From an uncultured bacterium (GTDB lineage: Bacteria; RBG-13-66-14), in NCBI GenBank assembly GCA_964436465.1, contig CAYTCV010000001.1, forward strand, positions 31,852-95,851: 64,000 nucleotides of DNA. The letters are read 5' to 3'. The notes beneath the pieces are model-generated. The model saw only the letters and a list, made by a program, of their open reading frames with translations, was not told where the DNA came from and made no database searches. This document shows, piece by piece, positions 5,212-27,352 of the stretch. Position 1 is the stretch's first letter. Every line of letters begins with the position of its first letter. A program made the translations under genes and the position numbers.

Positions 5212-5388
5212 ATGAAACCTCTTACCGGAAGCAAGGGCACGCTCATCGCCTTCGGCATCCTGGTTCTGGCCATCCTGGTCGCATGGCTGTTGTTCAAGAG
5301 CCTGCTGTTCCTGGTCATCTACGCCCTGCCGGCGGTGGTGGTCATCGGGCTCATCGTGTGGCTGGCGGCCCGCAGGCGGGAGCGGTAG
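5212..5388 (+). CDS. small two-TM membrane protein, paralog 3 of 3
   Basis: 58 aa ORF below the track cutoff, found by manual translation (MKPLTGSKGTLIAFGILVLAILVAWLLFKSLLFLVIYALPAVVVIGLIVWLAARRRER); strong AGGGAGGGAA RBS; same architecture as paralogs 1 and 2. Confidence 0.45.
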   Translation: MKPLTGSKGTLIAFGILVLAILVAWLLFKSLLFLVIYALPAVVVIGLIVWLAARRRER

Positions 5389-11832: not shown

Positions 11833-13011
11833 TTAACCCCTCCCCCGGTCAACCGAGGACTCCCCCACGAGGTCCACCAGGATGCGGTCGGCGACGAGCT
11901 GGTGCTCCCGCGCAATACGCCAGTGGTCTTCACCGGGGATTGACCCCGGCATGAGCTCCAACCTTCCCGCCGCCAGATGGGCCTCGAGGGCGGGAAACGC
12001 CTCCGCCACCCCCACCCCCCAGCGTGCGCGGAACCGCTTCTCGGACAGGCCTTCACGGGTCCGGAGGGCCAGCATCGCCATCTCCAGCCGGCGTTCCCCC
12101 GCCGAGGGCCGCTCCTCCTCACCGTCCGGTAGCCCGCCCCGCTTCACGGCGGTGAGCCAGGCCTCGAGGTCCGGCGTGTTGCGCCGTCGCACCGTCCCGT
12201 CGTCGGAGACCGCCGAGGGGCCGAGGCCGACGAACGGTCCGGCCTCCCAGTAAATCTCGTTGTGCCGGCAGCGGTGGCCCGGGCGGGCGAAGTTGGACAG
12301 CTCGTACTGCAGGAAACCCTCGGCTTCCAGGCGGTCCAGGGCGGCGTAGTAGATGTCGGCCGCCGCGTCGGGGTCCGGCGGGGGGAGCTCGCCCCGCTCC
12401 ACGGCCAGGCCCAGGGGGGTTGACGGCTCCAGCTTGAGCGCGTAGAGGGAGATGTGGTCCGGCGAAAGCGCGAGTGTGGATTCGAGGGTTTTACGAAAGA
12501 CGCTCGGCCTCTGCCCCGGCAGGCCGTACATCAGGTCGATGGACAGCGACCGGACCCCGGCGCGTCGGGCGTTGGCGAAAATTTCGGTGTCCGTGGAGCG
12601 GTGCGACCGCCCGAGCATCCGCAGCTCGCCCTCGTCGAAACTCTGGAAGCCCACCGAGAGCCGGGTCAGTCCGGCCCTAAGCAGCGCCTCGAAGTAGCCG
12701 ACGCCGGAGTTGGCGCAGGGGTTGGACTCCGTGGAGACCTCGGCCCCCGAGGGGATGCGGAACCGGTCGCGCGTCCGGGCGATGAGCTGGCCCAGGTTTC
12801 CCGCGCCCAGGATGTTGGGCGTCCCCCCGCCCACGTAGAGCGTTCGCCCGCGGACCTCTTGCGCGTGCTCCAACTCCCGGAGAAGCCCGGCGGTCACCCT
12901 CCCTCCCGACTCCGGCGTCGCGACGTAGCTGGTGAAATCGCAGTAGTCGCACCGGCGCCGGCAGAGCGGGACATGGACGTACACGCCGAACGAGCGGCGT
13001 GTGATGCTCAA
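11833..13011 (-). CDS. hemW: radical SAM heme chaperone HemW (coproporphyrinogen III oxidase-like)
   Basis: YVHVPLCRRRCDYCDF CxxxCxxC motif, GGGTPN, HemN/HemW C-terminal domain; 392 aa. Confidence 0.85.
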   Translation of the reverse strand: MSITRRSFGVYVHVPLCRRRCDYCDFTSYVATPESGGRVTAGLLRELEHAQEVRGRTLYVGGGTPNILGAGNLGQLIARTRDRFRIPSGAEVSTESNPCANSGVGYFEALLRAGLTRLSVGFQSFDEGELRMLGRSHRSTDTEIFANARRAGVRSLSIDLMYGLPGQRPSVFRKTLESTLALSPDHISLYALKLEPSTPLGLAVERGELPPPDPDAAADIYYAALDRLEAEGFLQYELSNFARPGHRCRHNEIYWEAGPFVGLGPSAVSDDGTVRRRNTPDLEAWLTAVKRGGLPDGEEERPSAGERRLEMAMLALRTREGLSEKRFRARWGVGVAEAFPALEAHLAAGRLELMPGSIPGEDHWRIAREHQLVADRILVDLVGESSVDRGRG

Positions 13012-14408
13012 GACGCCGCCCTCGGGCTATCCGCCGCCGGCCGGACGTAGATGGGATTGGAGAAGAGCCAGAGTCGCTGCACCTTGCCCCAGGGGAGGTT
13101 GGGCGCCTCGACCCAGGCCTCGACCCGGTACACGCCGGACCTGAAGACCCGGTACACGAACCGGTTGTCCGGAATACGCCGCAACAGCTCGCCGTCACGG
13201 ATGAGCCGCAGCTCGATTCCCTCCGCCGGGGGGCAGTAGGCCTCCAGGGTCGTGGGCTCGTCGCCGAGGTTCGTCTCGTCGCCCATAATGACGGTTCTCT
13301 CCCCCGTGCGGGCGGTGAACCGGAATCCCCGGCCGTCCCCGATGGGGGCGATGCAGCCGAAGCAGTGCCCCCGGGCGAGGGCCCCGGTGATGAGGGCCGA
13401 GGCGACGCCGGGGTCGTTCGGCAGGCGTTGCGGCAGAAGGACATAGGTGTGGATTGTTTTAAAGGCACTCTCGTAGCTCGGCACGTTCATGTACCAGTCG
13501 CCCAGGACCTTGGACCGCCCCAGGGCCTCGACGGAGGCCAGCCCAACCACCGGTCTGGTCCGGCACAGCTCGTCCCAGAGCGTGAACACCGCCCGGTCCA
13601 CGCCGAGACGGGCGTAGGAGCGGGGGCCGTCCAGGAGGTTCACACTGACCGCGCCGAGCCAGGTCAGGAGGTCTGCTCCCCGCCACAGGCCGCGCAGGTT
13701 GACCACCTCCAGAGCGGTGAAGTTGGACAGACTCCAGTCGTGCCAGGGTTCTTCGGCGTCCAGCGGCCTGGCGACGACCGACAGCCCCTTCTCGTTGACC
13801 TCGGCGCAGATGCTCGCCGTGGAACGACTGAGTCCCTTGGGCACGGTCTTGGGGCCCAGAATCCACAGCTTCCCCTCGGGCCGTTCGAGCTCGGCGCCGC
13901 AGATGAGGTACAGGTGACCGTAGTTGCCGACTTTGCCGTCTTTGCGGGCCCGCATCGACTGCACGTCGGTGAAGACGACGAAGTCCAGGTCCGCCTTCCG
14001 CGCCAGGACGGCGATTTCACCGTACGTCGAGGCGCCGTCGGAGTATAGGCTGTGCACGCCGAGCACGCCCCGGTAGGCGTAGTACCCGCCCAGCCGGGGG
14101 TAGACGGCGAAGTTCTTCGCGGGGAACTGGACCTGGAGGTTGTAGAGGGAGAAGAGGGTGAAGGCGGCCACCAGGGCCAGGATGACGTCCCGAACCATAC
14201 GGCGGCGTTTCTTGCGGCGGGTTTTCGCTTCCGTCGTGGTCGGGGCGTCGGGGCCGTGGGTGAGGTCCTGGGCGCGGGGGTGGGGACTCTCGGGGGGCGC
14301 CGTTTTGCGGGTCTTCCCTCGCCGGAACAGGCGCCGGAAAAACGCGCCGACCGCCCCCGTGAGGCCGGTCCAACACTTTTTGAGCCTGTGGGATTTTTCC
14401 TGGGTCAA
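13008..14408 (-). CDS. membrane-anchored PHP-domain metallohydrolase (CehA/McbA-like), paralog A
   Basis: N-terminal basic region + TM helix; GVLGVHSLYSDG PHP-like His motif; C-terminus YRVEAWVEAPNLPWGKVQRLWLFSNPIYVRP resembles the C-terminus of the 32648-33799 protein. Confidence 0.6.
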   Translation of the reverse strand: MTQEKSHRLKKCWTGLTGAVGAFFRRLFRRGKTRKTAPPESPHPRAQDLTHGPDAPTTTEAKTRRKKRRRMVRDVILALVAAFTLFSLYNLQVQFPAKNFAVYPRLGGYYAYRGVLGVHSLYSDGASTYGEIAVLARKADLDFVVFTDVQSMRARKDGKVGNYGHLYLICGAELERPEGKLWILGPKTVPKGLSRSTASICAEVNEKGLSVVARPLDAEEPWHDWSLSNFTALEVVNLRGLWRGADLLTWLGAVSVNLLDGPRSYARLGVDRAVFTLWDELCRTRPVVGLASVEALGRSKVLGDWYMNVPSYESAFKTIHTYVLLPQRLPNDPGVASALITGALARGHCFGCIAPIGDGRGFRFTARTGERTVIMGDETNLGDEPTTLEAYCPPAEGIELRLIRDGELLRRIPDNRFVYRVFRSGVYRVEAWVEAPNLPWGKVQRLWLFSNPIYVRPAADSPRAAS

Positions 14409-14426
14409 CGGTCGCTTCCGGGGTGG

Positions 14427-15122
14427 CTATTCGAGAAAACTCCCCCGAACCCCGACCCAGAGCTGCTGCACCGTGCCCGTGGAATTCACTTCGGCGTAGA
14501 GTTGCAGCCAGCGCTCCAGCCGCGGGTCGGCGAAAGGAGGGAGGGGCAGCTTCGATGCCTCCAGGAGCCAGCGGCGGTCGTCGTTCCCGCCCGTGCAGTC
14601 CACCGCCCGCCAGGTGAGGGCGCGGAAAGCCGCCGGGGTCGGGCGGAAGTCGCCGTTGTGCTCCGGGTGGGCCGAGAGGGCGTCCAGGTTCAGCTCTTCC
14701 AGCCGTCCGAGCCAGGCCTCCGGCAGTTCGACCGGGGGGGTGGCGGTCGTGTCGGCGGAGGCCGCTCCGCCGGACAGCCGGACGCCGTACCCGTAAACGT
14801 CGGTTTCGGTCACGAGGGCGTCGGACAGGAGGACGAGCGAGCCCGAGAGTTCGGGAAGCCGCGGCTCCAGGAAGAAAACCTCGCGCGTGATGCCGCCCGC
14901 GTTCCAGGTGTACGAGGTAAGGGTGGTCAGGGCGCCGGTGTCGCGCACGAGGCCGTTGACCGTGACGCGGTCGCCCGGCTCGTAGCCGGAGGCGGTCGCC
15001 CGGTCGGCCAGGTCGCCCCCGGGCGCGACGGGGTGGATTTGGGGGGGAGTGTCCTCCCGGCAGGCGGCGCAGAGGACGAGGGCCGCGAAGAACGGAATCA
15101 GGCGGCGAGGCGTGTCATTCAA
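14427..15122 (-). CDS. hypothetical secreted/lipoprotein
   Basis: Track ORF extends to 15185 and overlaps the upstream gene by 70 nt; a TTG at 15120-15122 gives MNDTPRRLIPFFAALVLCAAC signal-like N-terminus 2 nt after the upstream stop. Start is uncertain. Confidence 0.45.
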   Translation of the reverse strand: MNDTPRRLIPFFAALVLCAACREDTPPQIHPVAPGGDLADRATASGYEPGDRVTVNGLVRDTGALTTLTSYTWNAGGITREVFFLEPRLPELSGSLVLLSDALVTETDVYGYGVRLSGGAASADTTATPPVELPEAWLGRLEELNLDALSAHPEHNGDFRPTPAAFRALTWRAVDCTGGNDDRRWLLEASKLPLPPFADPRLERWLQLYAEVNSTGTVQQLWVGVRGSFLE

Positions 15123-15771
15123 CGGAATACCCGGCCTCCTCCTCGGTGATGACGTGCACCTCCTCCGGGGAGGCGGTGCTGTCACGCAGGGCGGCTATTC
15201 GGTTCCGGGCGAAGGCGATGTCCCCCTCCCCATCCGAGAGGCTGATGTAACGCTGCCAGTGGCGGATGGCGTCCAGAGCGTCGCCGGTCTTCTCCAGAAG
15301 GAGGGCCAGGTTCCAGTGGGCCAGCGCGTAATCGGGCTTGATGTTTAGCGCCTGTTCGTAGGACTCCCGCGACAGGTCGTAGTACGACAGCTCCTGGTAG
15401 GCGTTGCCCAGGTTGTTGTACGCCTTGTAGTAGTAGGGCAGGACCTCGATGGCCTTCTCGAAGTAGCTGACGGCGAGGGAGAAGAGTTCGGACTCCATGT
15501 AGACCAGGCCGAGGTTGTTGTTGACGAAGGGGTCGTCCGGGGCGATGGCCTGTGCCTTCTCGTACTCCCGGGTCGCGCCGCGCAGGTCCCCGGCGGCGAG
15601 GAGGGCGTTGCCCGCGTCGATATAGCCGGACAGCTCGGAGTTTTCGCCGGGCTCCTTGACGGTCGTCTCCTCGGTGAGGGGGGCGGGCTGGGAGCCGCCT
15701 CCCCAGTCGAAGAGGGTACAGCCGGTGGAGAGGATAACGAGCAGGCAGAGGCCGAGGACGAGGTTTTTCAA
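15115..15771 (-). CDS. TPR-repeat lipoprotein
   Basis: MKNLVLGLCLLVILSTGCT lipoprotein signal; TPR units (AYNNLGNAY, ALAHWNLALLL). Confidence 0.7.
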   Translation of the reverse strand: MKNLVLGLCLLVILSTGCTLFDWGGGSQPAPLTEETTVKEPGENSELSGYIDAGNALLAAGDLRGATREYEKAQAIAPDDPFVNNNLGLVYMESELFSLAVSYFEKAIEVLPYYYKAYNNLGNAYQELSYYDLSRESYEQALNIKPDYALAHWNLALLLEKTGDALDAIRHWQRYISLSDGEGDIAFARNRIAALRDSTASPEEVHVITEEEAGYSVE

Positions 15772-15883
15772 TTGTCTGCTCCGGGGGCTTAGTTTCGGGT
15801 ATTCTAGCGTTACGCCGCGCGACAGTCAATGGGTGCGCCGGGCTATACCGTGGCGGAGCACCCGGAAGCGCGCGGGTATAACT

Positions 15884-15912
15884 GCATAAAACCTTGACAA
15901 TTAAAGAAATTC
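15884..15912 (+). promoter_or_regulatory. candidate sigma70-type promoter (TTGACA-N17-TATGTT)
   Basis: Perfect -35 TTGACA, 17-nt spacer, -10 TATGTT about 65 nt upstream of the 15979 start codon. Confidence 0.35.
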
Positions 15913-15978
15913 CGGTTATGTTTTGACCGTGATGACCCGGCGAACGGGTCTGAATAAGACTGTTGAGCATACCGCACG

Positions 15979-16731
15979 ATGGCCGACGACAGCCGACGCA
16001 GTGACGAGCCCCGGGTAAGCTTTCGGCGCGGCACGAAACCGCGCTCCAAGTACGGCTCCATCACGCACATCATCCTCCTGGGCGCCGCCCTGGCCGTAAT
16101 CATCTGGCTCATCTTCTTCCTGAAGGATTCGAGCCTCTTCAGCGGCGAGGGTGAGGGCGGGGAGACGGGGCACACCCCCGTGGTCCGCGGGTCCGGTCTG
16201 GACATCGACGAAAATCTCATCAACTACTTCGACGAGGACATCCAGCTCCTGCGGCCCGACGGCAATTGGGAATTCGCCTACGGCACCAGCCTGCGCCACG
16301 AAGAGGCGGACGCGTTCAGCGCGGTCGCCTGGCTCGACGCCACCGAAATCTGCCGGCTGACACTCTACGACGCCGAGCGACCCGTGGCCCGGGTGCGGGT
16401 GGGGAAGCTCCAGCTTCAGGAACCGCGCACGACAAGTTCGCTGGCCCGCCAGTCCTTCGAGAACATCATGCTCTACGCCCTGAACCCGGACCACCCGTAC
16501 AACGTGGACACCTGGGAGCCGACGACCACCCTCGATTCGGACGGGCTCCAGGGCACATACTACGTCATCAAGGTGACCCACACCCGTAACACCCAGGCCG
16601 ACATCCGCGTCGTCGCCTTCTTCGTAAAGGACCTCTGGGTCTATACCCTGATGGGCGAGGTGAGCTACGAGGAGTACGATATCTACCGGGAGAAGTTGCG
16701 CTATATCTTCGGTCATTTTGTGTTTATATAG
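15979..16731 (+). CDS. hypothetical membrane-anchored protein
   Basis: Basic N-terminus followed by TM helix ITHIILLGAALAVIIWLIFFL; 250 aa; no recognised domain. Confidence 0.45.
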   Translation: MADDSRRSDEPRVSFRRGTKPRSKYGSITHIILLGAALAVIIWLIFFLKDSSLFSGEGEGGETGHTPVVRGSGLDIDENLINYFDEDIQLLRPDGNWEFAYGTSLRHEEADAFSAVAWLDATEICRLTLYDAERPVARVRVGKLQLQEPRTTSSLARQSFENIMLYALNPDHPYNVDTWEPTTTLDSDGLQGTYYVIKVTHTRNTQADIRVVAFFVKDLWVYTLMGEVSYEEYDIYREKLRYIFGHFVFI

Positions 16732-16932
16732 CCCTTTGCATTTGCATATTTATCCGCCGTGTGGCAGACTAAACCTATGAGTCTTCATCTCCGACCCCCC
16801 ACGTATCGGGGCCGCGGTGAGAGGGAAACCTGTGTACGGTGAGAGGACGGCGTTGTACGCCGGTCATTCCCCGTTGACCGTTCCCGACCGTTCCAGCTTC
16901 ATAAACCAGCCGGTTGTTCGGAAGGACCCGTC

Positions 16933-18003
16933 ATGGTTGACCAGAGCTATATCGAGGAGATAAAGCGGAGAAACGCCGAGCGGGCGGCCAAGCTCAAGGA
17001 AAGCCTGAAAATCGGCGATTTCTCGAAGCTCGCTCCCTCGGGGGCCGGTGACGAGCCGCCCGGAGCGGTGGTCATCACCCCCGGTGGTGCAAGGAAGGCC
17101 GCCGCGGGTCCTCCGCCACCTCCCGAAGGTAAACCGGCCGCCGCGGGACCGTCGGTCGCACCGCCCCCTCCACCGCCTTCCCGGGGCGAAGCGGCCCGCA
17201 CCGTTCCGCCGCCTCCGCCGCCCGCCGGCAGAGCCGCGGCGGCTCCCCCTCCACGCGAAGACAGGGCCGAGAGACCGGCGGCCCCGCCGCCCGAAGCGGA
17301 GAGAGAGCCCCTCGTCCCCTCCGAGGGCATCTGGGACGAGATTCTCGGCGAGACCGTGGAGGCGGCGCCCGAGGAGATGCCGTCTCCCCTGGATGCCGGC
17401 CCCAGCACCTCCGAGCTCGAAGAGTTCAAGGTGCCCCTCTTCGATACGAGCCGCATCGAGGAGGAGGAGGAGGTAGAGGAGGAGGAAGAGGTCGCCGCGG
17501 TGGCGGAGGAGCAGGAGGGTATTACCGACGAGTTCGTAGTCCCCGCCTTCGATTCCGGAACGACCACGGAGTTGGTGGGGGAGGAGTACGCAGTTCCCGC
17601 CTTCGATTCCGTGGAGGCGGAGACCCCCGTCGAGGTAGAGGAGGAGGAGTACGCGGTCCCGGCCTTCGACTCCTCCGTCGCGGAGCCCGCTCCCGTCGAG
17701 GAAGCCGTCGAAGCCGCCGAAAAGATGGAGGAAGTCGAGGAGGAGTACGCGGTACCGGCCTTCGATACCTCCGCCGCGGCACCCCCGCCCGTCGAGGAAG
17801 TAGAGGCGGCCCCGGTGGAGGAACCGGTCCGACCGGCCGCCGCCGCGCCCGCCGCAGCCGTGCCCACGGTCTTCGACAACTACGTCATCCTCGAGGTCAA
17901 GGGCTCCGAGCTCCGGCTGAAACGCCGCAACATTTCACTGCGCGAGGCCGTCTCCCTCTTCGAGGTCGCCCTGGAGGAGTGCAGAAAGCTTCTCGAGGAC
18001 TAG
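16933..18003 (+). CDS. acidic proline-rich repeat protein (5 x [DE]E[FY][AV]VPAFD[ST])
   Basis: Structured N-terminus (MVDQSYIEEIKRRNAERAAKLKE), Pro-rich PPPPP segments, five EEYAVPAFDS-type repeats separated by E/V/A-rich linkers, structured C-terminus (VFDNYVILEVKGSELRLKRRNISLREAVSLFEVALEECRKLLED); ends 23 nt before mreB. Confidence 0.55.
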   Translation: MVDQSYIEEIKRRNAERAAKLKESLKIGDFSKLAPSGAGDEPPGAVVITPGGARKAAAGPPPPPEGKPAAAGPSVAPPPPPPSRGEAARTVPPPPPPAGRAAAAPPPREDRAERPAAPPPEAEREPLVPSEGIWDEILGETVEAAPEEMPSPLDAGPSTSELEEFKVPLFDTSRIEEEEEVEEEEEVAAVAEEQEGITDEFVVPAFDSGTTTELVGEEYAVPAFDSVEAETPVEVEEEEYAVPAFDSSVAEPAPVEEAVEAAEKMEEVEEEYAVPAFDTSAAAPPPVEEVEAAPVEEPVRPAAAAPAAAVPTVFDNYVILEVKGSELRLKRRNISLREAVSLFEVALEECRKLLED

Positions 18004-18025
18004 GCGCCCTTTCGGGTCGGTTTAC

Positions 18026-19105
18026 TTGGGGGCGCAGAGTTGCGCCCCGATTTGGACTCCGTTCGAGTCCAGCGAGCGCGCCTTGCTTTTCAACAAAATC
18101 CACCCCCGTTACATCGCCCTGGACCTGGGCACCACCAGCACCCTGATTCACCTCGAGGGTCAGGGGGTGGTCGTGAACGAGCCCTCGGTCATCGCCGTCA
18201 ACGAGAAGGGGCAAATCGAGGCCCTGGGCCGGGAGGCCAAGCGGATGCTGGGGCGCACCCCGCCGAACATCCGCGCCATCCGGCCCATGGAAGACGGCGT
18301 CATCGCCGATTACGAGACCGCCGAGCTCATGCTCAAGGCCCTGTTGCGCCAGGCGCTCAAGGGGGCGTCCATCGTGAAGCCGAGGGCGCTGTGCTGCGTG
18401 CCGTCGGGAATCACGGAGGTGGAGAAGCGGGCGGTGCGCGACTCGGTGAAGAACGCCGGCGTCCGGGAGATATACCTCATCGAGGAGCCCATCGCCGCCG
18501 CGGTGGGGATGCGCCTGCCCATCGAGGAGAGCACCGGCTCCATCGTGGTGGACGTGGGCGGCGGCACCACCGAGGTCGCCGTGATGAGCCTCGGCGGGGT
18601 GGTGGTGTCCGAGTCGCGCAAAATCGGCGGGAATTTCATGGACCAGGCCGTGGACCGCTATCTCCGCAGCCACTACAACGTCTTCGTCGGCGAGCAGATT
18701 TGCGAGGAGATAAAAATCACCATCGGCTCCGCCGTGCCCCTGGAGGAGGAGGAGACCTTCGTGGTCAAGGGCCGGAACATGCTCAACGGCATCCCGACCA
18801 CGGTGACCATCAGCTCCACCGAGGTGCGCGAAGCGCTGCGCGAGAGTATCGTGCAGGTCATCGGCGCCGTGCGTTCCACCCTGGAGCAGACGCCGCCCGA
18901 GCTGGCCTCCGACATCGTCAACGCCGGAATCAACATGACGGGCGGCGGTTCGCTCCTGAAGCGCCTGGACGACGCCATCACCCAGGAGACGAACCTGCGG
19001 GTCCACCGCGCCGCCTCGCCCCTGACCACCATCATCGAGGGGCTCGGGATGATTCTCGACGACTTCCGCCGCTACCGGAGGCTCTTCAACCTCTACCCGA
19101 CGTAG
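18026..19105 (+). CDS. mreB: rod shape-determining protein MreB
   Basis: IALDLGTTSTLIH, NEPSVIA, IRPMEDGVIAD, DVGGGTTEVAV, classic MreB motifs. True start may be the in-frame TTG at 18083 (MLFNKIHP...). Confidence 0.95.
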   Translation: MGAQSCAPIWTPFESSERALLFNKIHPRYIALDLGTTSTLIHLEGQGVVVNEPSVIAVNEKGQIEALGREAKRMLGRTPPNIRAIRPMEDGVIADYETAELMLKALLRQALKGASIVKPRALCCVPSGITEVEKRAVRDSVKNAGVREIYLIEEPIAAAVGMRLPIEESTGSIVVDVGGGTTEVAVMSLGGVVVSESRKIGGNFMDQAVDRYLRSHYNVFVGEQICEEIKITIGSAVPLEEEETFVVKGRNMLNGIPTTVTISSTEVREALRESIVQVIGAVRSTLEQTPPELASDIVNAGINMTGGGSLLKRLDDAITQETNLRVHRAASPLTTIIEGLGMILDDFRRYRRLFNLYPT

Positions 19106-19125
19106 GACGCTTGCTCCCGCCGCAT

Positions 19126-19151
19126 GGAGGGGCTCGGGGCCCTCTTTTTTT
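19126..19151 (+). terminator. rho-independent terminator after mreB
   Basis: GGAGGGGCTCGGGGCCCTC imperfect hairpin followed by T7. Confidence 0.45.
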
Positions 19152-19234
19152 ATGGGAGGATTGACCTCCGCCCGCGTTTAATGAAAGGCACTTTCCGCCG
19201 CGACCGCCGGAGCCGCCGCGCGACCCTCTTCGCG

Positions 19235-19243
19235 TGGTATAAT
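19235..19243 (+). promoter_or_regulatory. extended -10 element TGGTATAAT
   Basis: Consensus TATAAT with upstream TG, 49 nt before the 19292 start; no clear -35. Confidence 0.4.
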
Positions 19244-19291
19244 CCGGACCCGTAAGAACCGAATCCACGCCGGATTACCGATATTTTTCAA

Positions 19292-21739
19292 ATGACCGTC
19301 ACCGCCGCAGGCAGGATTTTCAAGAACGAGGGCGTGCGCTGGGGACTGACCGTCCTCGGCCTGGCGGTCGTCGTCGCCGGCTCGACCCTGCTCCGGCGCT
19401 CCCTCTGGAGCGACGACCCGCTGATGGTTTCCGACGCGGCCTTCCGCTTCCGCCTGGCGCGGATGTACGCCCAGGGGGAGATGCCGCCTTCGCGGGACCC
19501 CAGGGTGCTGCCTCCCGAGGGACAGCCGCTCCACGACGACCTGCTCCTCGTTGAGGACGCCCTGGTGGGGTGGACCTACCGCCTGTTCCACGCCGGGTAC
19601 GACGAGGCGTCCTTCGAGAGTCACCTGGCGACATGGGTCTCGCTGGTGAGCTCCCTGGGCGCGGCGGCGGTCTTCCTCCTGGGTTACGCCCTGTGGCGGA
19701 AAAGAAGCGTGGCTCTCGCCGCGGCGCTCATCGCCGCCTTCGCCGTGGCCTGCGTGGACCGGACGGTCAACGTCTACCTGCGGGAGCACATCGCCGGACC
19801 GTTCATCCTGTTGGGCTGGGCGGGTCTTATCGGCGCCCTCGGACCGCCGGCCGATGGTTTCGGTTGGAGGAGGCACCTTCCCTGGCTCGTCGCCTGCGGG
19901 GCGGGGTGGGGCATGGCGCTGGCCGCCTGGCACCTGGCGGGCTTCCTCCTCACGGTGACGGCGGTCCTCCTGGTCGCATACCTCGTCTGGCGGAAGGAGT
20001 GGCGGTCGGCCGGCCCGACGGCGCTCGTTCTGGGGGCGGTCACCCTCGCGGCCGGTTTTATCGTTCCAGCGCTGCGGGCGAAGGGGCTGGCATTCTCACC
20101 GGGCGCCTGCCTGCTGTACCTGACCGCCCTGGTCTGCTTCATCCCCCGACTGCGGAAGTTTATCGAGCCGAGGCGATGGCGCGCCGTACTGGCGCTCGTC
20201 GGCGGCGCGGCGGTCCTCTACCTCGCTGGAAGGCTACTGGCCGGTCAGGAGTCCCAGTTCGGCCACGTCTACACCCTGTTCTGGGATAAACTGGTCCTCC
20301 TCGGCCAAAAGCCGGTCGAACCGGCCCGACTGTCCTGGATAAGCCGGGCGCTGTGGTCCGGTCCCTTCGACGGCCCGACCCTCGCCGGTTTCCTCGCCTC
20401 GAACTGGCTGCTCCTGCCCCTGGGAGCTGCCGGGACGGCTTTCTGCCTCGTGGATTGGCGCCGGGAGAAAATCCCGCAGGCCGCCGTTCTCTTCCTGGCG
20501 CTGACCGCGGCGCTCCTCGTCGGTTTTCTCTTCTTCCGCCGACTCGAGGTCTTCCTCGCCCCGCTCCTGGCCGTCGCCGCGGCGGGGCTCATCATCCGCG
20601 TCAACTCGTGGCGGAAGCTGCCTCTGGCGGTGGGGCTGGCCGGTCTCGCCTTCTTCAACGTCTACCAGTCGGCCAACATCACCGGCGATGACGCGGTGCG
20701 GCGGGTCGTCTCCCGGCTGGATGAGCAGCCGCCCCCCTGGCCCCACGACATCGGCGACGAGCTGCGGGTCGTCATCGGCTGGCTGCGGGAGAACACGCCG
20801 CCCGACGCCGTGCTCGCCGCGCGGTACAACATCGCCCCCATGCTGCTGACCTACGCCGACCGCCCCATCGCGCTGCACTCCATCTGGGAGTCTCCCGAGG
20901 TCCGGGAGCGGGCGCGAAGGTTCACCCTCGGCCAGTATGGGGCCGAAGTGGATTTCGAGAACCTGCTCGCGGGGTGGGGGGTGGACTTCCTGGTGGTGAG
21001 CGCCGCCGACTACCTCGACGCCGGTCCCGAGTCGGCGCGCTATGAGGCCGACGCGCTCCGGCCCGCCGGGAACGAGGCCGTCGCCACGCTCTGCCTCCAT
21101 CCCGAGGAACTGGCCGGCTTCGACCTCCGGTTCCAGACGCCGTCTTTCCGGGTGTACGCGGTCGGTGATAAACCCCGCGGGCGGCCCTTCTTCGGCGATG
21201 ATAAAGCCTGGGCCCTGGCCGGGAGCCCCCCCGATTCCAGACCGGTCGGCGGATACAGCCCGCTCTTCGACCCGGACTCCCCCGTCGTCGCCGGGACGGA
21301 GCCCGCCGACCGGGCCTCCGCCATCTACGCCGCCCTGGACGACTACAACCTCGGCGCCTCGCTCTACAACGGCGGCCGCTACGCCCAGGCCGTCCCCCGT
21401 TTCCGCCGCGTTCTGGAGCGGGTGGGCGACCTGAACCGCGCCGGGTACTGGCTGGCGGAGGCGCTCTACCGGTCCGGCGACCCGGCCGGGACGGAGGTTG
21501 CGTTGAACGCATTCCTCACGCGCAGCCCCGGGGACCTGGACGGCCTCCTGCTGCGCGCCGAGGTCCTCCCGGCCCTGGGGCGGACCGCCGAGGCGCTGGA
21601 CATGTTGCAGACGGCAATCGCCCGGCTGCCCGACGAGCCGCGGCTGTACGACGCGCTGGCCGACGTGTACCGGGGGCTCGGTGATTTCGGACAGGCGGAG
21701 CTTCTGTCCGACCGGGCGCGGGAGGTGGCCGGTGCCTGA
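19292..21739 (+). CDS. polytopic membrane protein, GT-C-like glycosyltransferase fold candidate, with C-terminal TPR domain
   Basis: About 11 predicted TM segments in the first 480 aa (Trp/Arg-rich loops), then a soluble domain and TPR-like repeats (RAGYWLAEALYRSGD, ALDMLQTAIARLPDEPRLYDALADVYRGLGDFGQAE). Architecture resembles PMT/ArnT-type GT-C enzymes. Confidence 0.55.
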   Translation: MTVTAAGRIFKNEGVRWGLTVLGLAVVVAGSTLLRRSLWSDDPLMVSDAAFRFRLARMYAQGEMPPSRDPRVLPPEGQPLHDDLLLVEDALVGWTYRLFHAGYDEASFESHLATWVSLVSSLGAAAVFLLGYALWRKRSVALAAALIAAFAVACVDRTVNVYLREHIAGPFILLGWAGLIGALGPPADGFGWRRHLPWLVACGAGWGMALAAWHLAGFLLTVTAVLLVAYLVWRKEWRSAGPTALVLGAVTLAAGFIVPALRAKGLAFSPGACLLYLTALVCFIPRLRKFIEPRRWRAVLALVGGAAVLYLAGRLLAGQESQFGHVYTLFWDKLVLLGQKPVEPARLSWISRALWSGPFDGPTLAGFLASNWLLLPLGAAGTAFCLVDWRREKIPQAAVLFLALTAALLVGFLFFRRLEVFLAPLLAVAAAGLIIRVNSWRKLPLAVGLAGLAFFNVYQSANITGDDAVRRVVSRLDEQPPPWPHDIGDELRVVIGWLRENTPPDAVLAARYNIAPMLLTYADRPIALHSIWESPEVRERARRFTLGQYGAEVDFENLLAGWGVDFLVVSAADYLDAGPESARYEADALRPAGNEAVATLCLHPEELAGFDLRFQTPSFRVYAVGDKPRGRPFFGDDKAWALAGSPPDSRPVGGYSPLFDPDSPVVAGTEPADRASAIYAALDDYNLGASLYNGGRYAQAVPRFRRVLERVGDLNRAGYWLAEALYRSGDPAGTEVALNAFLTRSPGDLDGLLLRAEVLPALGRTAEALDMLQTAIARLPDEPRLYDALADVYRGLGDFGQAELLSDRAREVAGA

Positions 21740-23138
21740 CCGGGTGCTCATCCTGGGTGCCGGTCTGACGGGGCTCGCCGCCGCCGACGAGCTGGCGGCC
21801 GTCGGTGTCCCCGGCCTGGTCCTGGAGCGGTCCGCCTCGGTGGGCGGCCTGGCCGGCGGAATCCGGCGCGGGGGGTTCAGCTTCGATTACGGCCCCCACC
21901 GCTTCCACACCCCGGACCCCGCCCTCGAGCGCTGGTTCATAGACCTCTTCCCCGACGGCGCCTACCGGCGCCCCCGGCGCAAGAGTGAAATCCAGCTCGT
22001 CGGTCGGCGTTTCGCCTACCCCCTGGAGCTGGGCGACGTGGTGCGCAAGCTGGATTTTGTGGACAACGTCCGGGTCTTCTCCGACTATCTCGTGAGCGCG
22101 CTGCGGCGGACACTGACGCGCCCCGCCGAGGCGAGCTTCGAGGACTGGGTGGTCGACCGCTTCGGCCGCACGCTCTACGACCTGTACTTCAAGCCGTACA
22201 CGGAGAAGCTCTGGGGCGTTTCCACCCGGGACATCTCGCCCGACTGGGCCGCGCAGCGCATCAGCCTGGTGAGCCTGTTCGACGTCCTCAAGCGGCTTCT
22301 TTCCACAAACGCCGGCGATGACCCCCGGACCTACGCCCGGGAGTTCCTCTACCCGGAGGCGGGAATCGGCGAGCTTCCGCGCCGTCTGGCGGCCCGGGCC
22401 GCGTCCCGCGGGGTGGAAATCCGTCTGAACGCGCAGGTGACCGCCCTGAAGGCGGGGAACGGTTCCTTCGAGGTCGAGGTCGAAGGGGTAGGCGGAAAGG
22501 CCTACCGCGAATCCGCCACCGCCGTCGTCTCCACGGTCCCCCTGGCGGAGTTGGTCGGATTCATCGAGCCGCGTCCCGGGGCGGATGTGCTTCGAGCCGC
22601 CGATGGATTACGCTCCCGCGCCGTGGTCTTCCTCCATCTGGCGCTGGAAGGCGAAACGCCCTCGGACAACCACTGGATTTACTTCCCCGAGCCGGGTTAC
22701 ATCTTCAACCGGGTCAGCGAGCCGGCCAACTTCTCGGAAAAATTGACGCCGCCGGGACGGGCGGCGCTCACCGCCGAGGTGAGCTGCGACGCGGGCGACC
22801 GGTTCTGGCGGATGGGCCGGGAGGAGCTGTGCCGGGAGTCGTACCGCGGCCTGGCGTCGGTGGGCCTCTTGAAAAAACCGCCCCGGGGCTGCGCCGTGTC
22901 ATACCAGCCCCACGCTTATCCCCTCTACGACCGGGGGTACGACGAGCGGCTGGCGGCCTGCCTGGGGCACGTGAACCGTCACCCCGGTCTCGTCACCACC
23001 GGGCGGCAGGGGCTCTTCCGCTACGGGAACATGGACCACGCGGTGGTCATGGGCCGGAAGGCGGCCCTGTCGCTCCTGGGTAAAATCGACCGCGGGGAGG
23101 CCCAGGCGGTGGGCACGACGCAGGAGTACTTCGGCTGA
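21732..23138 (+). CDS. FAD/NAD(P)-binding oxidoreductase (amine-oxidase / protoporphyrinogen-oxidase-like fold)
   Basis: GTG start overlapping the upstream stop (GTGCCTGA); N-terminal Rossmann motif VLILGAGLTGLAAADEL...ERSASVGG; about 469 aa. Confidence 0.7.
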   Translation: MPDRVLILGAGLTGLAAADELAAVGVPGLVLERSASVGGLAGGIRRGGFSFDYGPHRFHTPDPALERWFIDLFPDGAYRRPRRKSEIQLVGRRFAYPLELGDVVRKLDFVDNVRVFSDYLVSALRRTLTRPAEASFEDWVVDRFGRTLYDLYFKPYTEKLWGVSTRDISPDWAAQRISLVSLFDVLKRLLSTNAGDDPRTYAREFLYPEAGIGELPRRLAARAASRGVEIRLNAQVTALKAGNGSFEVEVEGVGGKAYRESATAVVSTVPLAELVGFIEPRPGADVLRAADGLRSRAVVFLHLALEGETPSDNHWIYFPEPGYIFNRVSEPANFSEKLTPPGRAALTAEVSCDAGDRFWRMGREELCRESYRGLASVGLLKKPPRGCAVSYQPHAYPLYDRGYDERLAACLGHVNRHPGLVTTGRQGLFRYGNMDHAVVMGRKAALSLLGKIDRGEAQAVGTTQEYFG

Positions 23139-24457
23139 TGCGGCGTATTCTCCTCATCGTCAAGAACTTCCCCCCCTTCCGGACCGAGCCGAACACGGCC
23201 AACCTGGCAAAGTACCTCGGTCGGCAGGGGTGGAAAATCGACGTCCTGTGCTCCCGGCCCGGCTGGGGGGTGGAAACGGGCGGCCTCACCCGCGATGAGG
23301 CCCAACTCCGGGCGCTCCACCCGAGCACCACCGTTTTCCCGGTGGCGACGGCCAACCCGGTCCACGGCCTCGCGCTGCTCCTCAAGGGGAAAAAAGGTGG
23401 AGGGGCGCCGACGCGGAGGCTGTCGCGGCGCCACGTTTCACCCCTCGGTCGCCTGTTCCGCTCCGTTCTGCACATCCCCGACTCCGACCACTACTGGTTC
23501 CACCCGGCTTTTTGGCACGGCCTGCGGCTGATAAAAGACCGCCGCCCGGACCTGCTTGTCACCTCGGGGCCGCCCTTCACCACCCACCTCGCCGGCCGGG
23601 CGCTGAAACAGGCGACCGGTATCCCGTGGGTCTGCCACAGCCGCGACCTCTTCCTGGAAAATCCGCTCTACACTCCCTGGCTTCCCTGGCGGCGGGGGCT
23701 GGACCGGACGCTGGAGCGTCTGGTGATGCGGGGCGCCGACGCGGTGACCACGGTCTATCCCGAGGCCACGGAGCTGCTCCGGCGGCGGTACGGGAGGCCG
23801 GGTCAGGTTTTCCTGACAGTGCGCAACGGCTACGACGAGGAGATGTTCGCCGGGGCGGAGCCGGTCCGCTCGGACCGCTTTACCGTCCTGTACGGCGGGC
23901 GCCTGGCGGCCGACGACGCCGACGGGCGCACCGGCTGGTCGCTCCTGGACGGCTTCGAGACATGGCTCGGGCGGCGTCCCGACCTGCGGGGAGTCGTCCG
24001 CCTGAAGCTGGTGGGGAACGTCCACCCCGTCTACGCCGGGGAGGTCGCGCGGCGGGGGCTGGCCGACGCCGTCGAGATTCTGCCGCCGGTGCCGCTGGCC
24101 GAGATGATTCGGCTGGAGCTGGGAGCCGATATACTCGTAATCATCCTGGAGGACTCGCCGAAGAACTGGTTCACCGCCGGGGGAAAAATTTACGAGAGCG
24201 CCCGGGCCGGCCGGCCGATTCTGGGCATCCTGCCGGAGAACGCCGCCGCCAGGCTCATCCGGGAGAAAGGCCTCGGACTCGTTGCAAGTTACGGCTCGGC
24301 GGAGGAGGTCGCCTCGGCCCTGGACGCGCTCCGCGCGGGAATCGGGTCGGTAGGTTTCTCCTACGGCGGGCCGGAACGGGACGCCTTCGTGCGTGCGACG
24401 AGCTTCGAGCGTCTGGCGGCGAGATTCGGCGAACTTTTTAATGAACTTCTCGGTTGA
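23138..24457 (+). CDS. glycosyltransferase family 4 (GT-B)
   Basis: Start overlaps the previous stop; C-terminal GT4 region (ILPPVPLAEM...GADILVIIL...E..G.PILG). 439 aa. Confidence 0.75.
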   Translation: MRRILLIVKNFPPFRTEPNTANLAKYLGRQGWKIDVLCSRPGWGVETGGLTRDEAQLRALHPSTTVFPVATANPVHGLALLLKGKKGGGAPTRRLSRRHVSPLGRLFRSVLHIPDSDHYWFHPAFWHGLRLIKDRRPDLLVTSGPPFTTHLAGRALKQATGIPWVCHSRDLFLENPLYTPWLPWRRGLDRTLERLVMRGADAVTTVYPEATELLRRRYGRPGQVFLTVRNGYDEEMFAGAEPVRSDRFTVLYGGRLAADDADGRTGWSLLDGFETWLGRRPDLRGVVRLKLVGNVHPVYAGEVARRGLADAVEILPPVPLAEMIRLELGADILVIILEDSPKNWFTAGGKIYESARAGRPILGILPENAAARLIREKGLGLVASYGSAEEVASALDALRAGIGSVGFSYGGPERDAFVRATSFERLAARFGELFNELLG

Positions 24458-24492
24458 GCGGGGTTGGTGAAATTTATATAAGGGCTTGTCGG

Positions 24493-24522
24493 TTGACCCG
24501 CCTCCGGCGGGCGTGGTAAGCT
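24493..24522 (+). promoter_or_regulatory. candidate promoter TTGACC-N18-TAAGCT (TG-extended) upstream of uppP
   Basis: Matches a -35 consensus 5/6 and has an extended TG; weak -10. About 45 nt before the uppP start. Confidence 0.3.
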
Positions 24523-24563
24523 AAATCCTCAATTGACGCGGTCTTATAGACCCCGGAGGTGAC

Positions 24564-25409
24564 TTGGACCTGTTGCAGGCCGCCGCGCTCGGATTCGTCC
24601 AGGGGGCGACCGAGTTCCTCCCCGTTTCGAGCTCGGGCCATCTGGTGCTCACCGGGGCGCTCATCGGCGTGGAGCCGGATTTCAACCTGGCCTTCGGCGT
24701 TTTCCTGCACTTCGCCACGGCGCTGGCGGTGATGGTTTATTTCGCCAGGCGCTTCGTCGGGCTGGTGCGCGTCCTATTCGTCAATCCGGTCCGGTGGCTC
24801 GGCCGGAAGGAGATTCCCGACGGCGACCGGCGCCTGGGCCGCCTCCTGGTGGGAATCATCCTCGGCACGCTGCCGGCGGTGGCCGTGGGGCTTTTGCTGA
24901 AGGCCCAAATCGACGAGGCGTTCCAATCGCCCGTCCTCGCCGCCGGGATGCTCTACGTCACCGCGGCGATTCTCTTCAGCCTGCTTCTGCGCCGGCGCGG
25001 CCGGGTGAAGGCCGAGACGGATGAAACGGCGGAGCCCCCCGCCCCGACGTGGTGGCGCGCCCTCCTCATCGGCGTCGCCCAGGCGGTGGCCGTCCTGCCG
25101 GGAATCAGCCGCTCCGGGGCGACCATCGTCGCCGGCATCCACCTGGGCGAGGAGCAGAGGCACGCCGCCGAGTTCAGCTTCCTCCTCTCGCTGCCGGCCA
25201 TCCTCGGGGCCAACATCATCGAGCTGGGCGACGTGATTTCCAAGGGCGCGTGGCTCCCCTGGCCGGTGTACCTCGTCGGGGGGGCGGCGGCCTTCTTCAC
25301 CGCTCTGGCGGCCATCTGGGTCGTCATGCGGACCGTGAGGAGCGGGCGCTTCTGGCTCTTCGGCGTCTACTGCGCGGTCGCGGCCACGGTTTCCCTCATC
25401 GTCTGGTAA
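24564..25409 (+). CDS. uppP: undecaprenyl-diphosphate phosphatase
   Basis: GATEFLPVSSSGHL and PGISRSGATI BacA/UppP signature motifs; 8 TM helices. Confidence 0.9.
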   Translation: MDLLQAAALGFVQGATEFLPVSSSGHLVLTGALIGVEPDFNLAFGVFLHFATALAVMVYFARRFVGLVRVLFVNPVRWLGRKEIPDGDRRLGRLLVGIILGTLPAVAVGLLLKAQIDEAFQSPVLAAGMLYVTAAILFSLLLRRRGRVKAETDETAEPPAPTWWRALLIGVAQAVAVLPGISRSGATIVAGIHLGEEQRHAAEFSFLLSLPAILGANIIELGDVISKGAWLPWPVYLVGGAAAFFTALAAIWVVMRTVRSGRFWLFGVYCAVAATVSLIVW

Positions 25410-25413
25410 AGCC

Positions 25414-27330
25414 TTGGTTTCACGGAAAAAGAAGAGGGATAAGGAACGGGCCGTCGGGACGGGCCTGTTGCTGCTCGTCGCCGGGGCCCTGTCTTTCGTC
25501 AGCCTGGTCGTCTTTCTGGATTCGGGCGCGCCGGAAAGTATCGGTGAGGCAAGCTCCGGTGTCGTCGGCGACCTGGGGCTGTCCTGGGGTCGGGCTCAGG
25601 TCTGGCTCTACGGTTACCTGGCCCTGGCGCTGGCCCTGGTCATCGTCTATCTGGGGGTGGAGCTCCTGCGGGGGACGCGGGAGAAGCTCGGCCGGAGAAT
25701 CATCGGCTTCCTCCTCCTGGTCACCTCCCTGGCGGTCCTCTTCGGCCTGACCGGCGTGGGCGCGGCCGACACCCCGTGGCACGGTTACGGGGGGTGGGTC
25801 GGGGTTGGCATCGCCGAAGGGCTGCTCGGCGCCGTCGGCTCCCTGGGCACCGTCGTTTTGGCACTCATCGGCCTGGTTTTCGGTTTTACCCTGTCCACCG
25901 GCGTCCGGCTCGCGGCCCTGGCCGGCGGCGTGTCCGGGGCGTTCCGTTGGACGGCGGGGAAGGTCGGACGCCTGTTCCGGGGCCGCGACTGGACGCGCGC
26001 GGTGCCCGAGGCCGCCGCGCCCGTCGAATCGGTTCCGGTGGAGCCGGTGCTCCCCGTCGAAGAGGTAAACCGAGCGCAGCGAGCTACGCCCCCGGCGAAC
26101 CCCGAGCCTCCCGAGCCCGAGGCGGACGACGCGCAGGTTGCCGAGCTTCCCGAGTGGCAGCAGCCCGGGTCGAGCGCCGTACACGAGGCGCCGCCCCTGG
26201 ACCTCCTCGGGCCCCTGAATCCGGATGACCGGCCGGACGACCCCGAGGAGCGCCTGGCCCGCGTAAGAATCCTCACGAGCTTCCTGGAGCAGAACCAGCT
26301 CGCGGCCAACGTGGTGGAATACACCGAAGGCCCCAGCCTGGGCCGTTTTGAGCTGCGCCTGGCCCCGGGGGTCCGAATCGCCTCCCTCGACCGCCTGCGG
26401 GCCGAGCTGGCGCTGGCGCTGGGGTGCAACCAGGTCCGCTTCGCCCCGAATCCGGAGCGGGGCACGGTGTCGCTGGAGGTTCCGCTGGCCCGACGGCGGA
26501 CGGTCCGGCTGCGCGAGCTCCTCGAGGAGCCCGGCTGGCAGGAGCACGAGAGCCCGCTGGCCTTCCCCGTGGGGCTGACCCAGGACGGCAAGGTCGTGGT
26601 GGCCGATTTCTGCGAGCTGCCGCACCTTTTGGTCGCGGGGACCACCGGCTCGGGCAAGAGCGTCTTCCTGAACGCGCTGCTCGTCTCGCTTCTGTGCCGG
26701 GTGGGCCCGAAGCACCTCCGGCTGGTGCTGGTGGACCCCGGGCGCGTGGAGCTGGCCCCCTACGACGGGCTGCCCCACCTCCTGACGCCGCCGGTGTACG
26801 AGCCCTACGGTGTGCTCGCCGTTCTGGGACGCCTGGTGGACGAGATGGACCAGCGGTACACTCGGCTGTCGGCGGCCCGGTGCCGTTCCATCGCCGACTT
26901 CAACGCCACCGTGGGCGAGCGGAACGACACGCCGATGCCGTACATCGTCCTGGCGGTGGACGAGCTGGCCGAGCTGATGGCCGCCACCGGCAAGGCCCTG
27001 GAACAACCTTTGGCCCGGCTGGCCCAGATGTCGCGCGCCGTGGGAATCCACCTCGTCGTCGCCACCCAGCGCCCCAGCGTGGACGTGGTGACCGGGGTGA
27101 TGAAGGCCAACTTCCCCAGCCGCATAGCCTTCCAGGTCCGCTCGAAGACCGACTCCCGGGTCATCCTGGACCAGGGCGGGGCCGAGGAACTGTCCGGGGG
27201 CGGGGACCTCCTGTTCCTCCCCGTGGGGGCGACGGAGCCGCTGCGGCTCCAGGGGGCCTACGTGGGCACGGCCGAGGTGGACGCCGTGGTGGGCTACTGG
27301 ACTGGAACCGCCGGCCGGAAGCCCTCGTAG
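25414..27330 (+). CDS. ftsK: DNA translocase FtsK/SpoIIIE family
   Basis: N-terminal TM helices, Pro/Glu-rich linker, alpha/beta motor with Walker A (GTTGSGKSVFLNALL) and Walker B (IVLAVDELAELM); ends shortly after the motor with no recognisable gamma winged-helix. Confidence 0.9.
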   Translation: MVSRKKKRDKERAVGTGLLLLVAGALSFVSLVVFLDSGAPESIGEASSGVVGDLGLSWGRAQVWLYGYLALALALVIVYLGVELLRGTREKLGRRIIGFLLLVTSLAVLFGLTGVGAADTPWHGYGGWVGVGIAEGLLGAVGSLGTVVLALIGLVFGFTLSTGVRLAALAGGVSGAFRWTAGKVGRLFRGRDWTRAVPEAAAPVESVPVEPVLPVEEVNRAQRATPPANPEPPEPEADDAQVAELPEWQQPGSSAVHEAPPLDLLGPLNPDDRPDDPEERLARVRILTSFLEQNQLAANVVEYTEGPSLGRFELRLAPGVRIASLDRLRAELALALGCNQVRFAPNPERGTVSLEVPLARRRTVRLRELLEEPGWQEHESPLAFPVGLTQDGKVVVADFCELPHLLVAGTTGSGKSVFLNALLVSLLCRVGPKHLRLVLVDPGRVELAPYDGLPHLLTPPVYEPYGVLAVLGRLVDEMDQRYTRLSAARCRSIADFNATVGERNDTPMPYIVLAVDELAELMAATGKALEQPLARLAQMSRAVGIHLVVATQRPSVDVVTGVMKANFPSRIAFQVRSKTDSRVILDQGGAEELSGGGDLLFLPVGATEPLRLQGAYVGTAEVDAVVGYWTGTAGRKPS

Positions 27331-27352
27331 CTCGAAAAAATACCGGAGTGCC

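Follow-up and report, generated by a model that had tools for sequence, protein, structure and literature searches.

An orphan acidic repeat protein encoded beside mreB in Coatesbacteria-like bacteria, a candidate multivalent partner of MreB

Introduction

MreB usually works together with MreC, MreD, RodZ, RodA, and PBP2, and RodZ binds MreB and couples that cytoplasmic protein to the periplasm across the membrane; to our knowledge, few other direct partners of MreB are known. Here we describe a locus within a 64,000-nucleotide stretch of DNA from an uncultured bacterium (GenBank assembly GCA_964436465.1, contig CAYTCV010000001.1; the whole stretch is hereafter called the window), in which mreB is preceded by a gene for an acidic, proline-rich protein with a repeated peptide motif (rep), which gene is in turn preceded by one for a bitopic membrane protein (up250). 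We propose, with a probability of roughly 0.4, that rep may be a cytoplasmic and disordered protein that, with its several peptide motifs, acts as a multivalent adaptor or regulator of MreB in the Coatesbacteria-like lineage.

The closest described systems are those in which an acidic repeat protein or a short peptide contacts a bacterial actin. In the magnetosome gene clusters of the magnetotactic Magnetospirillum, mamJ sits directly upstream of mamK. MamJ, as well as LimJ, is acidic, repetitive, and largely disordered, and links MamK filaments to the membrane-bound magnetosomes while speeding filament dynamics (PMC5059902); the acidic repeats of MamJ are dispensable for function, according to the title of reference 22 in that article. 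ParR and CorR, for their part, bind the filaments of ParM and CorM via a short C-terminal peptide, are encoded in the same operon as the filament protein, and attain their valency by oligomerisation, CorR having moreover an N-terminal helix and controlling cell shape (bioRxiv 10.1101/2025.06.27.661541). In the tail of FtsZ, a short acidic peptide with a P-x-F core is borne by a disordered linker and folds on binding FtsA, ZipA, or SepF (PMC9939409).

The present locus shares with mamJ–mamK an acidic repeat protein encoded directly upstream of a gene of the actin family, with a pI of 4.16 for rep, five repeats, and a spacer of 79 nt; it differs, nevertheless, in that rep has no detected similarity in Pfam or NCBIfam (a library with models for MamA and MamK, the presence of one for MamJ being unconfirmed), in that the neighboring actin is MreB and not MamK, and in that the repeats of rep are short and sharply conserved, whereas those of MamJ are long, hypervariable, and dispensable in the sense just cited. 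Among the scanned open reading frames (ORFs) of the window we found no magnetosome genes. With ParR and CorR the likeness lies in an adaptor encoded with an actin-like protein and in the N-terminal helix that rep also has, the binding of its motif to MreB being only proposed; those adaptors, however, have a single C-terminal peptide on each chain along with a DNA- or membrane-binding domain, whereas rep carries its copies (four to eight) internally, lacks a ribbon-helix-helix domain, and is not homologous. The rep motif has, as does the FtsZ tail, a [VI]-P-x-F core with an acidic N-terminal flank (FtsZ consensus in part from PMC9939409), but the FtsZ peptide is a single terminal copy with other flanking residues, and rep has no tubulin-like domain. 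Finally, up250 and rep together could give the topology of RodZ, with the function split over two proteins, although rep has neither a helix-turn-helix (HTH) nor a transmembrane segment, and up250 has neither DUF4115 nor an HTH, its periplasmic domain being PsbP/DcrB-like. We regard MamJ–MamK, ParR/CorR, and FtsZ–FtsA as analogies to rep and not as homologies; rep might belong to the class of motif-mediated actin binders represented by ParR, CorR, and the FtsZ tail.

Results and Discussion

Architecture of the rep Protein

In composition, rep (Table 1) is dominated by glutamate (18.8%), alanine (16.3%), and proline (14.6%), with a net charge of -51 laid out in a bipolar manner, the two ends being basic and the middle having a charge of about -54. 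The Kyte–Doolittle maximum over 19 residues is 1.27, and we found neither a hydrophobic or transmembrane segment nor a signal peptide in the protein sequence, for which reason rep should be cytoplasmic. The AlphaFold2 model, computed with the family alignment, predicts an N-terminal helix at a predicted local distance difference test (pLDDT) above 90, values mostly below 50 over residues 35–314—which stretch we read as disordered—and a C-terminus consisting of two strands (317–323 and 326–332) that form a beta-hairpin and of a helix (336–355), all at a pLDDT of 71–86. An initial annotation of this DNA, made from the sequence alone, had described a 356-residue protein with folded-looking termini around a disordered middle, which description the model bears out.

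Conservation in the family is concentrated in islands. The N-terminal one corresponds to MVDQSYIEEIKRRNAERAAKLK..GDFSKL, in which the basic residues and N14 are invariant (K11, R12, R13, N14, R17, K20, and K22 in the helix). Then follows the proline- and alanine-rich segment, whose three PPPPP(P) tracts are nearly invariant; the same annotation had called this segment PPPPP-rich and basic, of which characterization the tracts and the high proline content stand, but not the charge, since residues 37–125 are net neutral overall with only a slightly basic core. The GIWDEILG motif, with the predicted short helix at 134–137, is conserved at 90% or more, and the last 45 residues or so are conserved as ..LEVxGxELRLRRRNISLREA..EECRKLLEE, which domain we infer to serve in oligomerisation or in docking.

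Two long antisense ORFs overlie this region on the minus strand, one of 310 aa over rep (16947–17879) and another of 369 aa over mreB (17897–19006), a pattern that recurs throughout the window. Such ORFs are to be expected, and not to be taken as genes, in DNA with 67% G+C. We accordingly consider both as artefacts, and rejected the one over rep as a real gene because the plus frame has a Shine-Dalgarno sequence, an ATG start, and conserved ends, and because the genes annotated on other contigs include orthologues of the rep ORF.

The Motif Array

The middle of rep contains the five motif repeats that the initial annotation had pointed out, located at residues 163–279 and following the pattern [DE]E[FY]xVPxFD[ST]. 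At least one match to [DE][FY].VP.FD[ST] appeared in just 2 of 200,000 shuffled rep sequences, and the motif is absent from the rest of the window in a six-frame translation. The copies differ from one another in synonymous codons, indicating that the repeats are kept at the protein level and are not a fresh duplication of DNA; Tandem Repeats Finder gave no DNA-level tandem array underlying them, but just short GAG runs.

To describe the family we used a set of 20 distinct full-length sequences, in which both ends are conserved. The number of copies per protein ranges from four to eight in that set, and the 114 pooled instances give the consensus [ED]-E(84%)-[FY](81%)-x-V(94%)-P(100%)-x-F(98%)-D(82%)-[ST](92%). 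The first two copies occupy equivalent positions in the different orthologues, later copies expand or contract among them, and the repeats are retained at identities down to 40%, whereas the linkers between the conserved islands have diverged to the point of being unalignable. The combination of a conserved motif core with unalignable linkers is the signature of a short linear motif—“stickers” in a disordered spacer—and not that of drifting low complexity. Even if its partner is not MreB, rep illustrates cleanly, for bacteria, how a disordered scaffold can carry an array of conserved short motifs.

Family and Distribution

We found no match for rep in Pfam or in NCBIfam at E-values of up to 0.01; the rep profile retrieved polyproline noise alone from all the chain sequences of the Protein Data Bank (PDB; E > 0.7), and Foldseek with the rep model against the PDB gave no match below E = 5. 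A first homology search yielded 10 homologues with 40–82% identity from metagenomes and metagenome-assembled genomes, while scans of genomes and metagenomes provided further rep loci, one of them labeled as Candidatus Coatesbacteria. When the 47-residue C-terminal domain was searched with HMMER against 1.84 billion cluster representatives, five clusters were recovered, all of the rep family, the remaining matches being spurious multi-stretch ones in giant repeat proteins. These searches agree with the lineage-specific character that had been attributed to the protein at the outset: as judged from sequence comparison, rep is an orphan family outside any described one and confined to a narrow uncultured lineage, consisting of Candidatus Coatesbacteria and its relatives. 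In the literature on Coatesbacteria in relation to MreB, and on acidic disordered partners of MreB, we found nothing relevant. What is new here is the protein family; there are precedents for the kind of protein that rep most resembles, a disordered and acidic one that carries motifs and partners a bacterial actin whose gene adjoins its own.

The Conserved Unit of up250, rep, and mreB

A search with MreB delimited a clade with identities of 66–99%, after which the values drop sharply to at most 56% (Edwardsbacteria, WOR-3, and others). In every checkable locus of that clade the order is a gene for a protein of some 250 residues, then rep, and then mreB, which order holds even in the most divergent loci (MreB identities of 66–74%) and recurs, with the first two genes again directly upstream of mreB, in the additional clade members L015, L017/L018, and L019. 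The first protein, up250, has a basic cytoplasmic tail, a transmembrane helix at about residues 26–50, and a periplasmic PsbP/DcrB/Mog1-like domain at about 110–250, the envelope domain being also LpqN-like. In the two outgroup loci that we opened there is a canonical mreB–mreC–mreD–PBP2–rodA operon and no rep. Since every clade member examined has rep and the opened outgroups have none, the family is co-extensive with this MreB clade. The HTH_3 protein encoded upstream of mreB in WOR-3 might be a RodZ, although on reading its translation we saw no obvious transmembrane segment.

The usual partners are not found nearby. A tblastn search with the outgroup MreC, MreD, PBP2, and RodA gave nothing in 242 kb of clade DNA, and the scanned ORFs of the window, including the genes flanking mreB, contain no domains of MreC (PF04085), MreD (PF04093), PBP2, or RodA. 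The contrast that the initial annotation drew with canonical mreB operons, in which mreC and mreD lie downstream, thus holds, and the nearest outgroup phyla do have the canonical arrangement: in the Coatesbacteria-like clade mreB no longer adjoins mreC, mreD, PBP2, or rodA. This candidate phylum has kept a canonical MreB uncoupled from its usual gene partners and fixed, instead, with two orphan proteins. The same annotation had named two outcomes that would speak against a cytoskeletal association—homologues never linked to mreB along with a promoter of mreB's own, or repeats not conserved in orthologues; what we found was rep linked to mreB at every clade locus examined, and repeats that persist throughout the family.

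The mreB Gene

That the neighboring gene encodes an MreB is indicated by its matches to PF06723 (E = 3e-124), NF010539 (438.6 bits, cutoff 293), and TIGR00904 (415.5 bits, cutoff 365.75), in comparison with 60.4 bits on the MamK model, whose cutoff is 400. The closest solved structures are likewise the MreB chains 7zpt, 8azg, and 1jce, with E = 1.9e-101 to the Geobacillus MreB 7zpt. On these scores we take the product to be a genuine MreB and not a MamK.

The gap of 23 nt between rep and mreB in the initial annotation results from placing the start of mreB at the TTG at 18026. We rejected that start as a longest-ORF artefact, the one at 18083 being conserved: in 15 loci the start codon at this position is TTG, with GTG in its place in two sublineages, and the majority of loci offer no other start farther upstream. 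The gap therefore measures 79 nt and not 22–23 nt. MreB is normally an abundant protein, so that a conserved non-ATG start lacking a recognizable Shine-Dalgarno sequence is unusual, and it contrasts with rep, whose ATG has a GGAAGGA seven bases upstream.

With respect to the residues conserved in 104 outgroup MreBs, 20 positions of MreB are fixed to something different in the clade (among them 10, 94, 123, 150, 179, 207, and 232). The changes D232N (at a position that is 100% D in the outgroup), D10Y, E123K, and I179R make the protein less acidic, while R94G goes in the opposite direction. These fixed differences are a possible hint of a link between rep and MreB.

Expression Signals and the Spacer between rep and mreB

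The promoter upstream of up250 (Table 1) is the only sigma-70-like one that the consensus scan gave on the plus strand; it is conserved in eight related loci and constitutes a candidate promoter of the three-gene unit. In the rep–mreB gap that scan gave no sigma-70-like promoter, and the intrinsic terminator after mreB was the sole canonical one. Furthermore, rep and mreB lie close together in two sublineages: in L005 the three genes are spaced by 39 and 6 nt, and the rep–mreB gap of L017 measures 5 nt. The co-transcription of rep with mreB, which the initial annotation had thought probable, is in consequence plausible, all of these indications being indirect.

The up250–rep spacer, otherwise divergent, contains a 32-nt non-coding element that is kept in 9 of the 11 loci aligned. 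This element may be a weak internal promoter (TTTGCA-18-CAGACT), below the threshold of our promoter scan, or else an operator. In two loci the up250–rep spacer is expanded, to 429 nt in L011 (about 5250–5676) and to 566 nt in L014 (about 415–980), as against some 200 nt elsewhere, and both expansions look as if built of tandem copies of one repeated unit.

In the sublineage of the window, the 79-nt spacer between rep and mreB folds with an RNA z-score of -3.2 and contains a hairpin that is present in a single copy in the window, and so is not a dispersed repeat, and that is conserved in eight loci. In the consensus structure from RNAalifold, an outer stem is formed by the last codons and stop of rep (GAGGA.UAGGCG) and the region of the mreB start (CGCCUUG..UCUUC). 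The structured spacer matched no RNA family when positions 15700–19400 were scanned against Rfam. In L002, where a gene has been inserted upstream of the hairpin, the latter remains beside mreB. This spacer RNA could be an element for translational coupling or for mRNA stability. The weak TTG start without a Shine-Dalgarno sequence, together with the pairing of the start region with the end of rep, weakly suggests that ribosomes finishing rep may unmask the mreB start. In L005 and L017 a Shine-Dalgarno-like GAGGAA lies within the end of rep, which sequence in L017 likely serves the GTG start.

Proposed Role of rep and Alternative Explanations

If rep does work with MreB, a more specific version would have its four to eight motif peptides bind MreB and rep itself, anchored via up250, organize the filaments as a tether, bundler, or nucleator, thus replacing the coupling through RodZ, MreC, and MreD; this version we hold to be somewhat less likely than the broader proposal. 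According to the broader proposal, each repeated peptide would fold on binding and dock one copy of the partner, most likely an MreB subunit in a filament, so that rep, alone or oligomerised by way of its C-terminal domain, might tether, bundle, or locally concentrate MreB. Either the N-terminal helix or the C-terminal domain would join rep to up250, establishing a link between periplasm and cytoskeleton such as RodZ and MreC give elsewhere. Expression would be coupled as well, the three genes being under one conserved promoter and one terminator, with the translation of rep unmasking the start of mreB. MreB is the most economical candidate for the motif partner.

Were the more specific, filament-organizing version to hold, MreB would have in rep a partner of a new class, within a phylum in which mreB is no longer part of the mreCD–PBP2–rodA operon, and the succession of polyproline tracts, a short Trp-bearing helix, and an acidic multivalent region would be a convergent counterpart of the architecture of eukaryotic actin regulators. 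If the motifs bind MreB, they would constitute a new MreB-binding peptide of defined sequence that could serve as a probe or an inhibitor, a natural example of the multivalent short-motif regulation of a bacterial actin, and a second and independent case of the MamJ–MamK logic. Although the organisms are uncultured, the claim is open to in vitro work with synthetic genes.

Several considerations weigh against a partnership with MreB. The assignment of the motif partner is a guess, and the same data are compatible with a partner other than MreB; moreover, the acidic repeats of MamJ being dispensable, by analogy those of rep need not be the part that binds MreB. The MreB of the window has no insertion or unusual domain, and no notable indels with respect to the solved MreB structures. 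The whole neighborhood is collinear among these related genomes, which circumstance makes the synteny of mreB and rep less discriminating than it looks, and an unrelated gene of 448 aa lies between the two in L002–L004, so that strict adjacency is not obligatory. As to expression, the 32-nt element could be a separate promoter for rep, and the covariation in the rep–mreB spacer is thin: a single pair of the outer stem is compensatory, the others being invariant.

We considered four other explanations. One is that rep, like PopZ, assembles with itself into a hub or condensate scaffold, in which case its N-terminal helix would bind clients, its C-terminal domain would oligomerise, and its motifs would recruit several different clients without MreB being a specific partner. 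The layout of rep is that of PopZ in outline—a conserved N-terminal helix, a proline- and glutamate-rich acidic disordered linker (some 280 residues in rep), and a small C-terminal assembly domain—and both the multivalent stickers with spacers between them and the bipolar charge, which would favor self-association, fit such a hub; in addition, the MEEILASIRR of PopZ presumably resembles the WDEILGE of rep, which resemblance we take as a lead only. However, rep has no Pfam match at all, and hence no DUF2497, its predicted C-terminus of a beta-hairpin and one helix is unlike the helices of PopZ, and PopZ has neither a repeated VPxFD motif nor a linkage to mreB; the invariant linkage of rep with mreB, including the gaps of 5–6 nt, would be left unexplained, and we judge this hub unlikely. 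Somewhat less likely still is a role for rep as the cytoplasmic adaptor of up250 in recruiting envelope enzymes—the neighboring GT4 glycosyltransferases, BacA, which recycles the lipid carrier, or enzymes of peptidoglycan—with MreB merely co-expressed. That up250, bitopic and with its PsbP/DcrB/LpqN-like envelope domain, is always directly upstream would be in line with such an adaptor, as would the envelope-biogenesis genes downstream of mreB (19292–27994), which include those for the Dpy19-like/TPR protein, the amine-oxidase-like flavoprotein, a GT4 glycosyltransferase, and BacA; those downstream genes, nevertheless, vary between sublineages while mreB is constant, the 815-aa gene being gone in the most divergent loci (L001, L015, and L019), where two GT4 genes stand directly 3′ of mreB.

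The likeness of the motif core to that of FtsZ raises the question of whether rep mimics the FtsZ C-terminal peptide (D-[IV]-P-x-F...), either by competing multivalently at binders such as FtsA, SepF, ZipA, or MinC-like proteins or by connecting the divisome with MreB. The two have in common the [IV]-P-x-F core with acidic residues before it; the residues after the F, however, are D-[ST] in rep as opposed to the L-[RK] of the FtsZ tails, the conserved aromatic at -3 has no FtsZ counterpart, and the rep motifs are internal and not C-terminal. Although the conserved C-terminal peptide of FtsZ, with its fully conserved D, P, and F, binds many partners, including FtsA with its actin fold (PMC9939409), we consider the mimicry improbable. 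The explanation that we find hardest to sustain is that the repeats, lacking any binding function, arose as neutral expansions of low complexity within a spacer that evolves fast, and that the terminal domains alone matter: a copy number that ranges from four to eight among orthologues would be expected in that event, and the acidic repeats of MamJ are indeed hypervariable and, by the title of the work cited in PMC5059902, dispensable, but the V-P-x-F-D core of rep is 82–100% conserved over the pooled instances amid linkers that cannot be aligned, and a recent duplication of DNA would not by itself account for the synonymous sites at which the copies differ. Of all these possibilities, the adaptor or regulator working with MreB is the one that we prefer.

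Coordinates and Neighboring Genes

Table 1. Positions of the features of the up250–rep–mreB locus and its surroundings, numbered from the first nucleotide of the window.
Feature	Position	Strand	Remarks
Sigma-70-like promoter, TTGACA-17-TATGTT	15894..15922	+	Upstream of up250; consensus scan
up250	15979..16731	+	250-aa bitopic membrane protein; first gene of the conserved triad
Conserved 32-nt non-coding element	16741..16772	+	TTTGCATATTTATCCGCC(G/T)TGTGGCAGACTA (TTTGCATATTTATCCGCCGTGTGGCAGACTA); just past the up250 stop codon
Shine-Dalgarno-like GGAAGGA of rep	16920..16926	+	Sequence reading; kept as GGAAGGA in 8 of 11 aligned spacers
rep ORF	16933..18003	+	Acidic, Pro-rich, mostly disordered 356-aa protein; coordinates include the stop codon
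rep N-terminal helix (predicted)	16942..17010	+	Residues 4–26, QSYIEEIKRRNAERAAKLKESLK; net charge +3; pLDDT >90
rep Pro/Ala-rich segment	17041..17307	+	Residues 37–125; 33% Pro; three conserved PPPPP(P) tracts
rep GIWDEILG motif	17326..17349	+	Residues 132–139; sole Trp of rep
Motif copy 1, EEFKVPLFDT	17419..17448	+	Residues 163–172
Motif copy 2, DEFVVPAFDS	17527..17556	+	Residues 199–208
Motif copy 3, EEYAVPAFDS	17581..17610	+	Residues 217–226
Motif copy 4, EEYAVPAFDS	17644..17673	+	Residues 238–247
Motif copy 5, EEYAVPAFDT	17740..17769	+	Residues 270–279
rep C-terminal domain	17869..18000	+	Residues 313–356; beta-hairpin plus helix (predicted); 20 invariant columns
GC-rich hairpin, GGGGCGCA-GAGT-TGCGCCCC	18029..18048	+	8 bp; in the structured leader 18004–18082
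mreB	18083..19105	+	340 aa; conserved TTG start; no obvious Shine-Dalgarno sequence
Canonical intrinsic terminator	19126..19155 (end also placed at 19150)	+	GC stem with a T-run; follows mreB
815-aa Dpy19-like membrane protein with C-terminal TPR repeats	within 19292–27994		Downstream of mreB
Amine-oxidase-like flavoprotein, GT4 glycosyltransferase, BacA/UppP, FtsK, LolA	within 19292–27994		Downstream of mreB

The 448-aa gene that separates rep from the leader hairpin of mreB in three loci (7286–8632 in L002, also in L003 and L004) has no Pfam match and is visibly richer in A+T, being probably a foreign gene of recent acquisition. Divergent from the triad, on the minus strand at 13008–15771, are genes for a TPR lipoprotein (with a lipobox-like N-terminus ending in ..STGC), for an orphan protein of 252 aa, and for one of 466 aa that weakly matches the CehA/McbA metallohydrolases, which conserved set is syntenic in all the loci that reach that far. 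Farther along the window, at 61157–63157, a 666-aa protein combines an N-terminal prepilin-type methylation motif (N_methyl) with a Big_7 bacterial Ig domain, its size being unusually large for a pilin-like protein.

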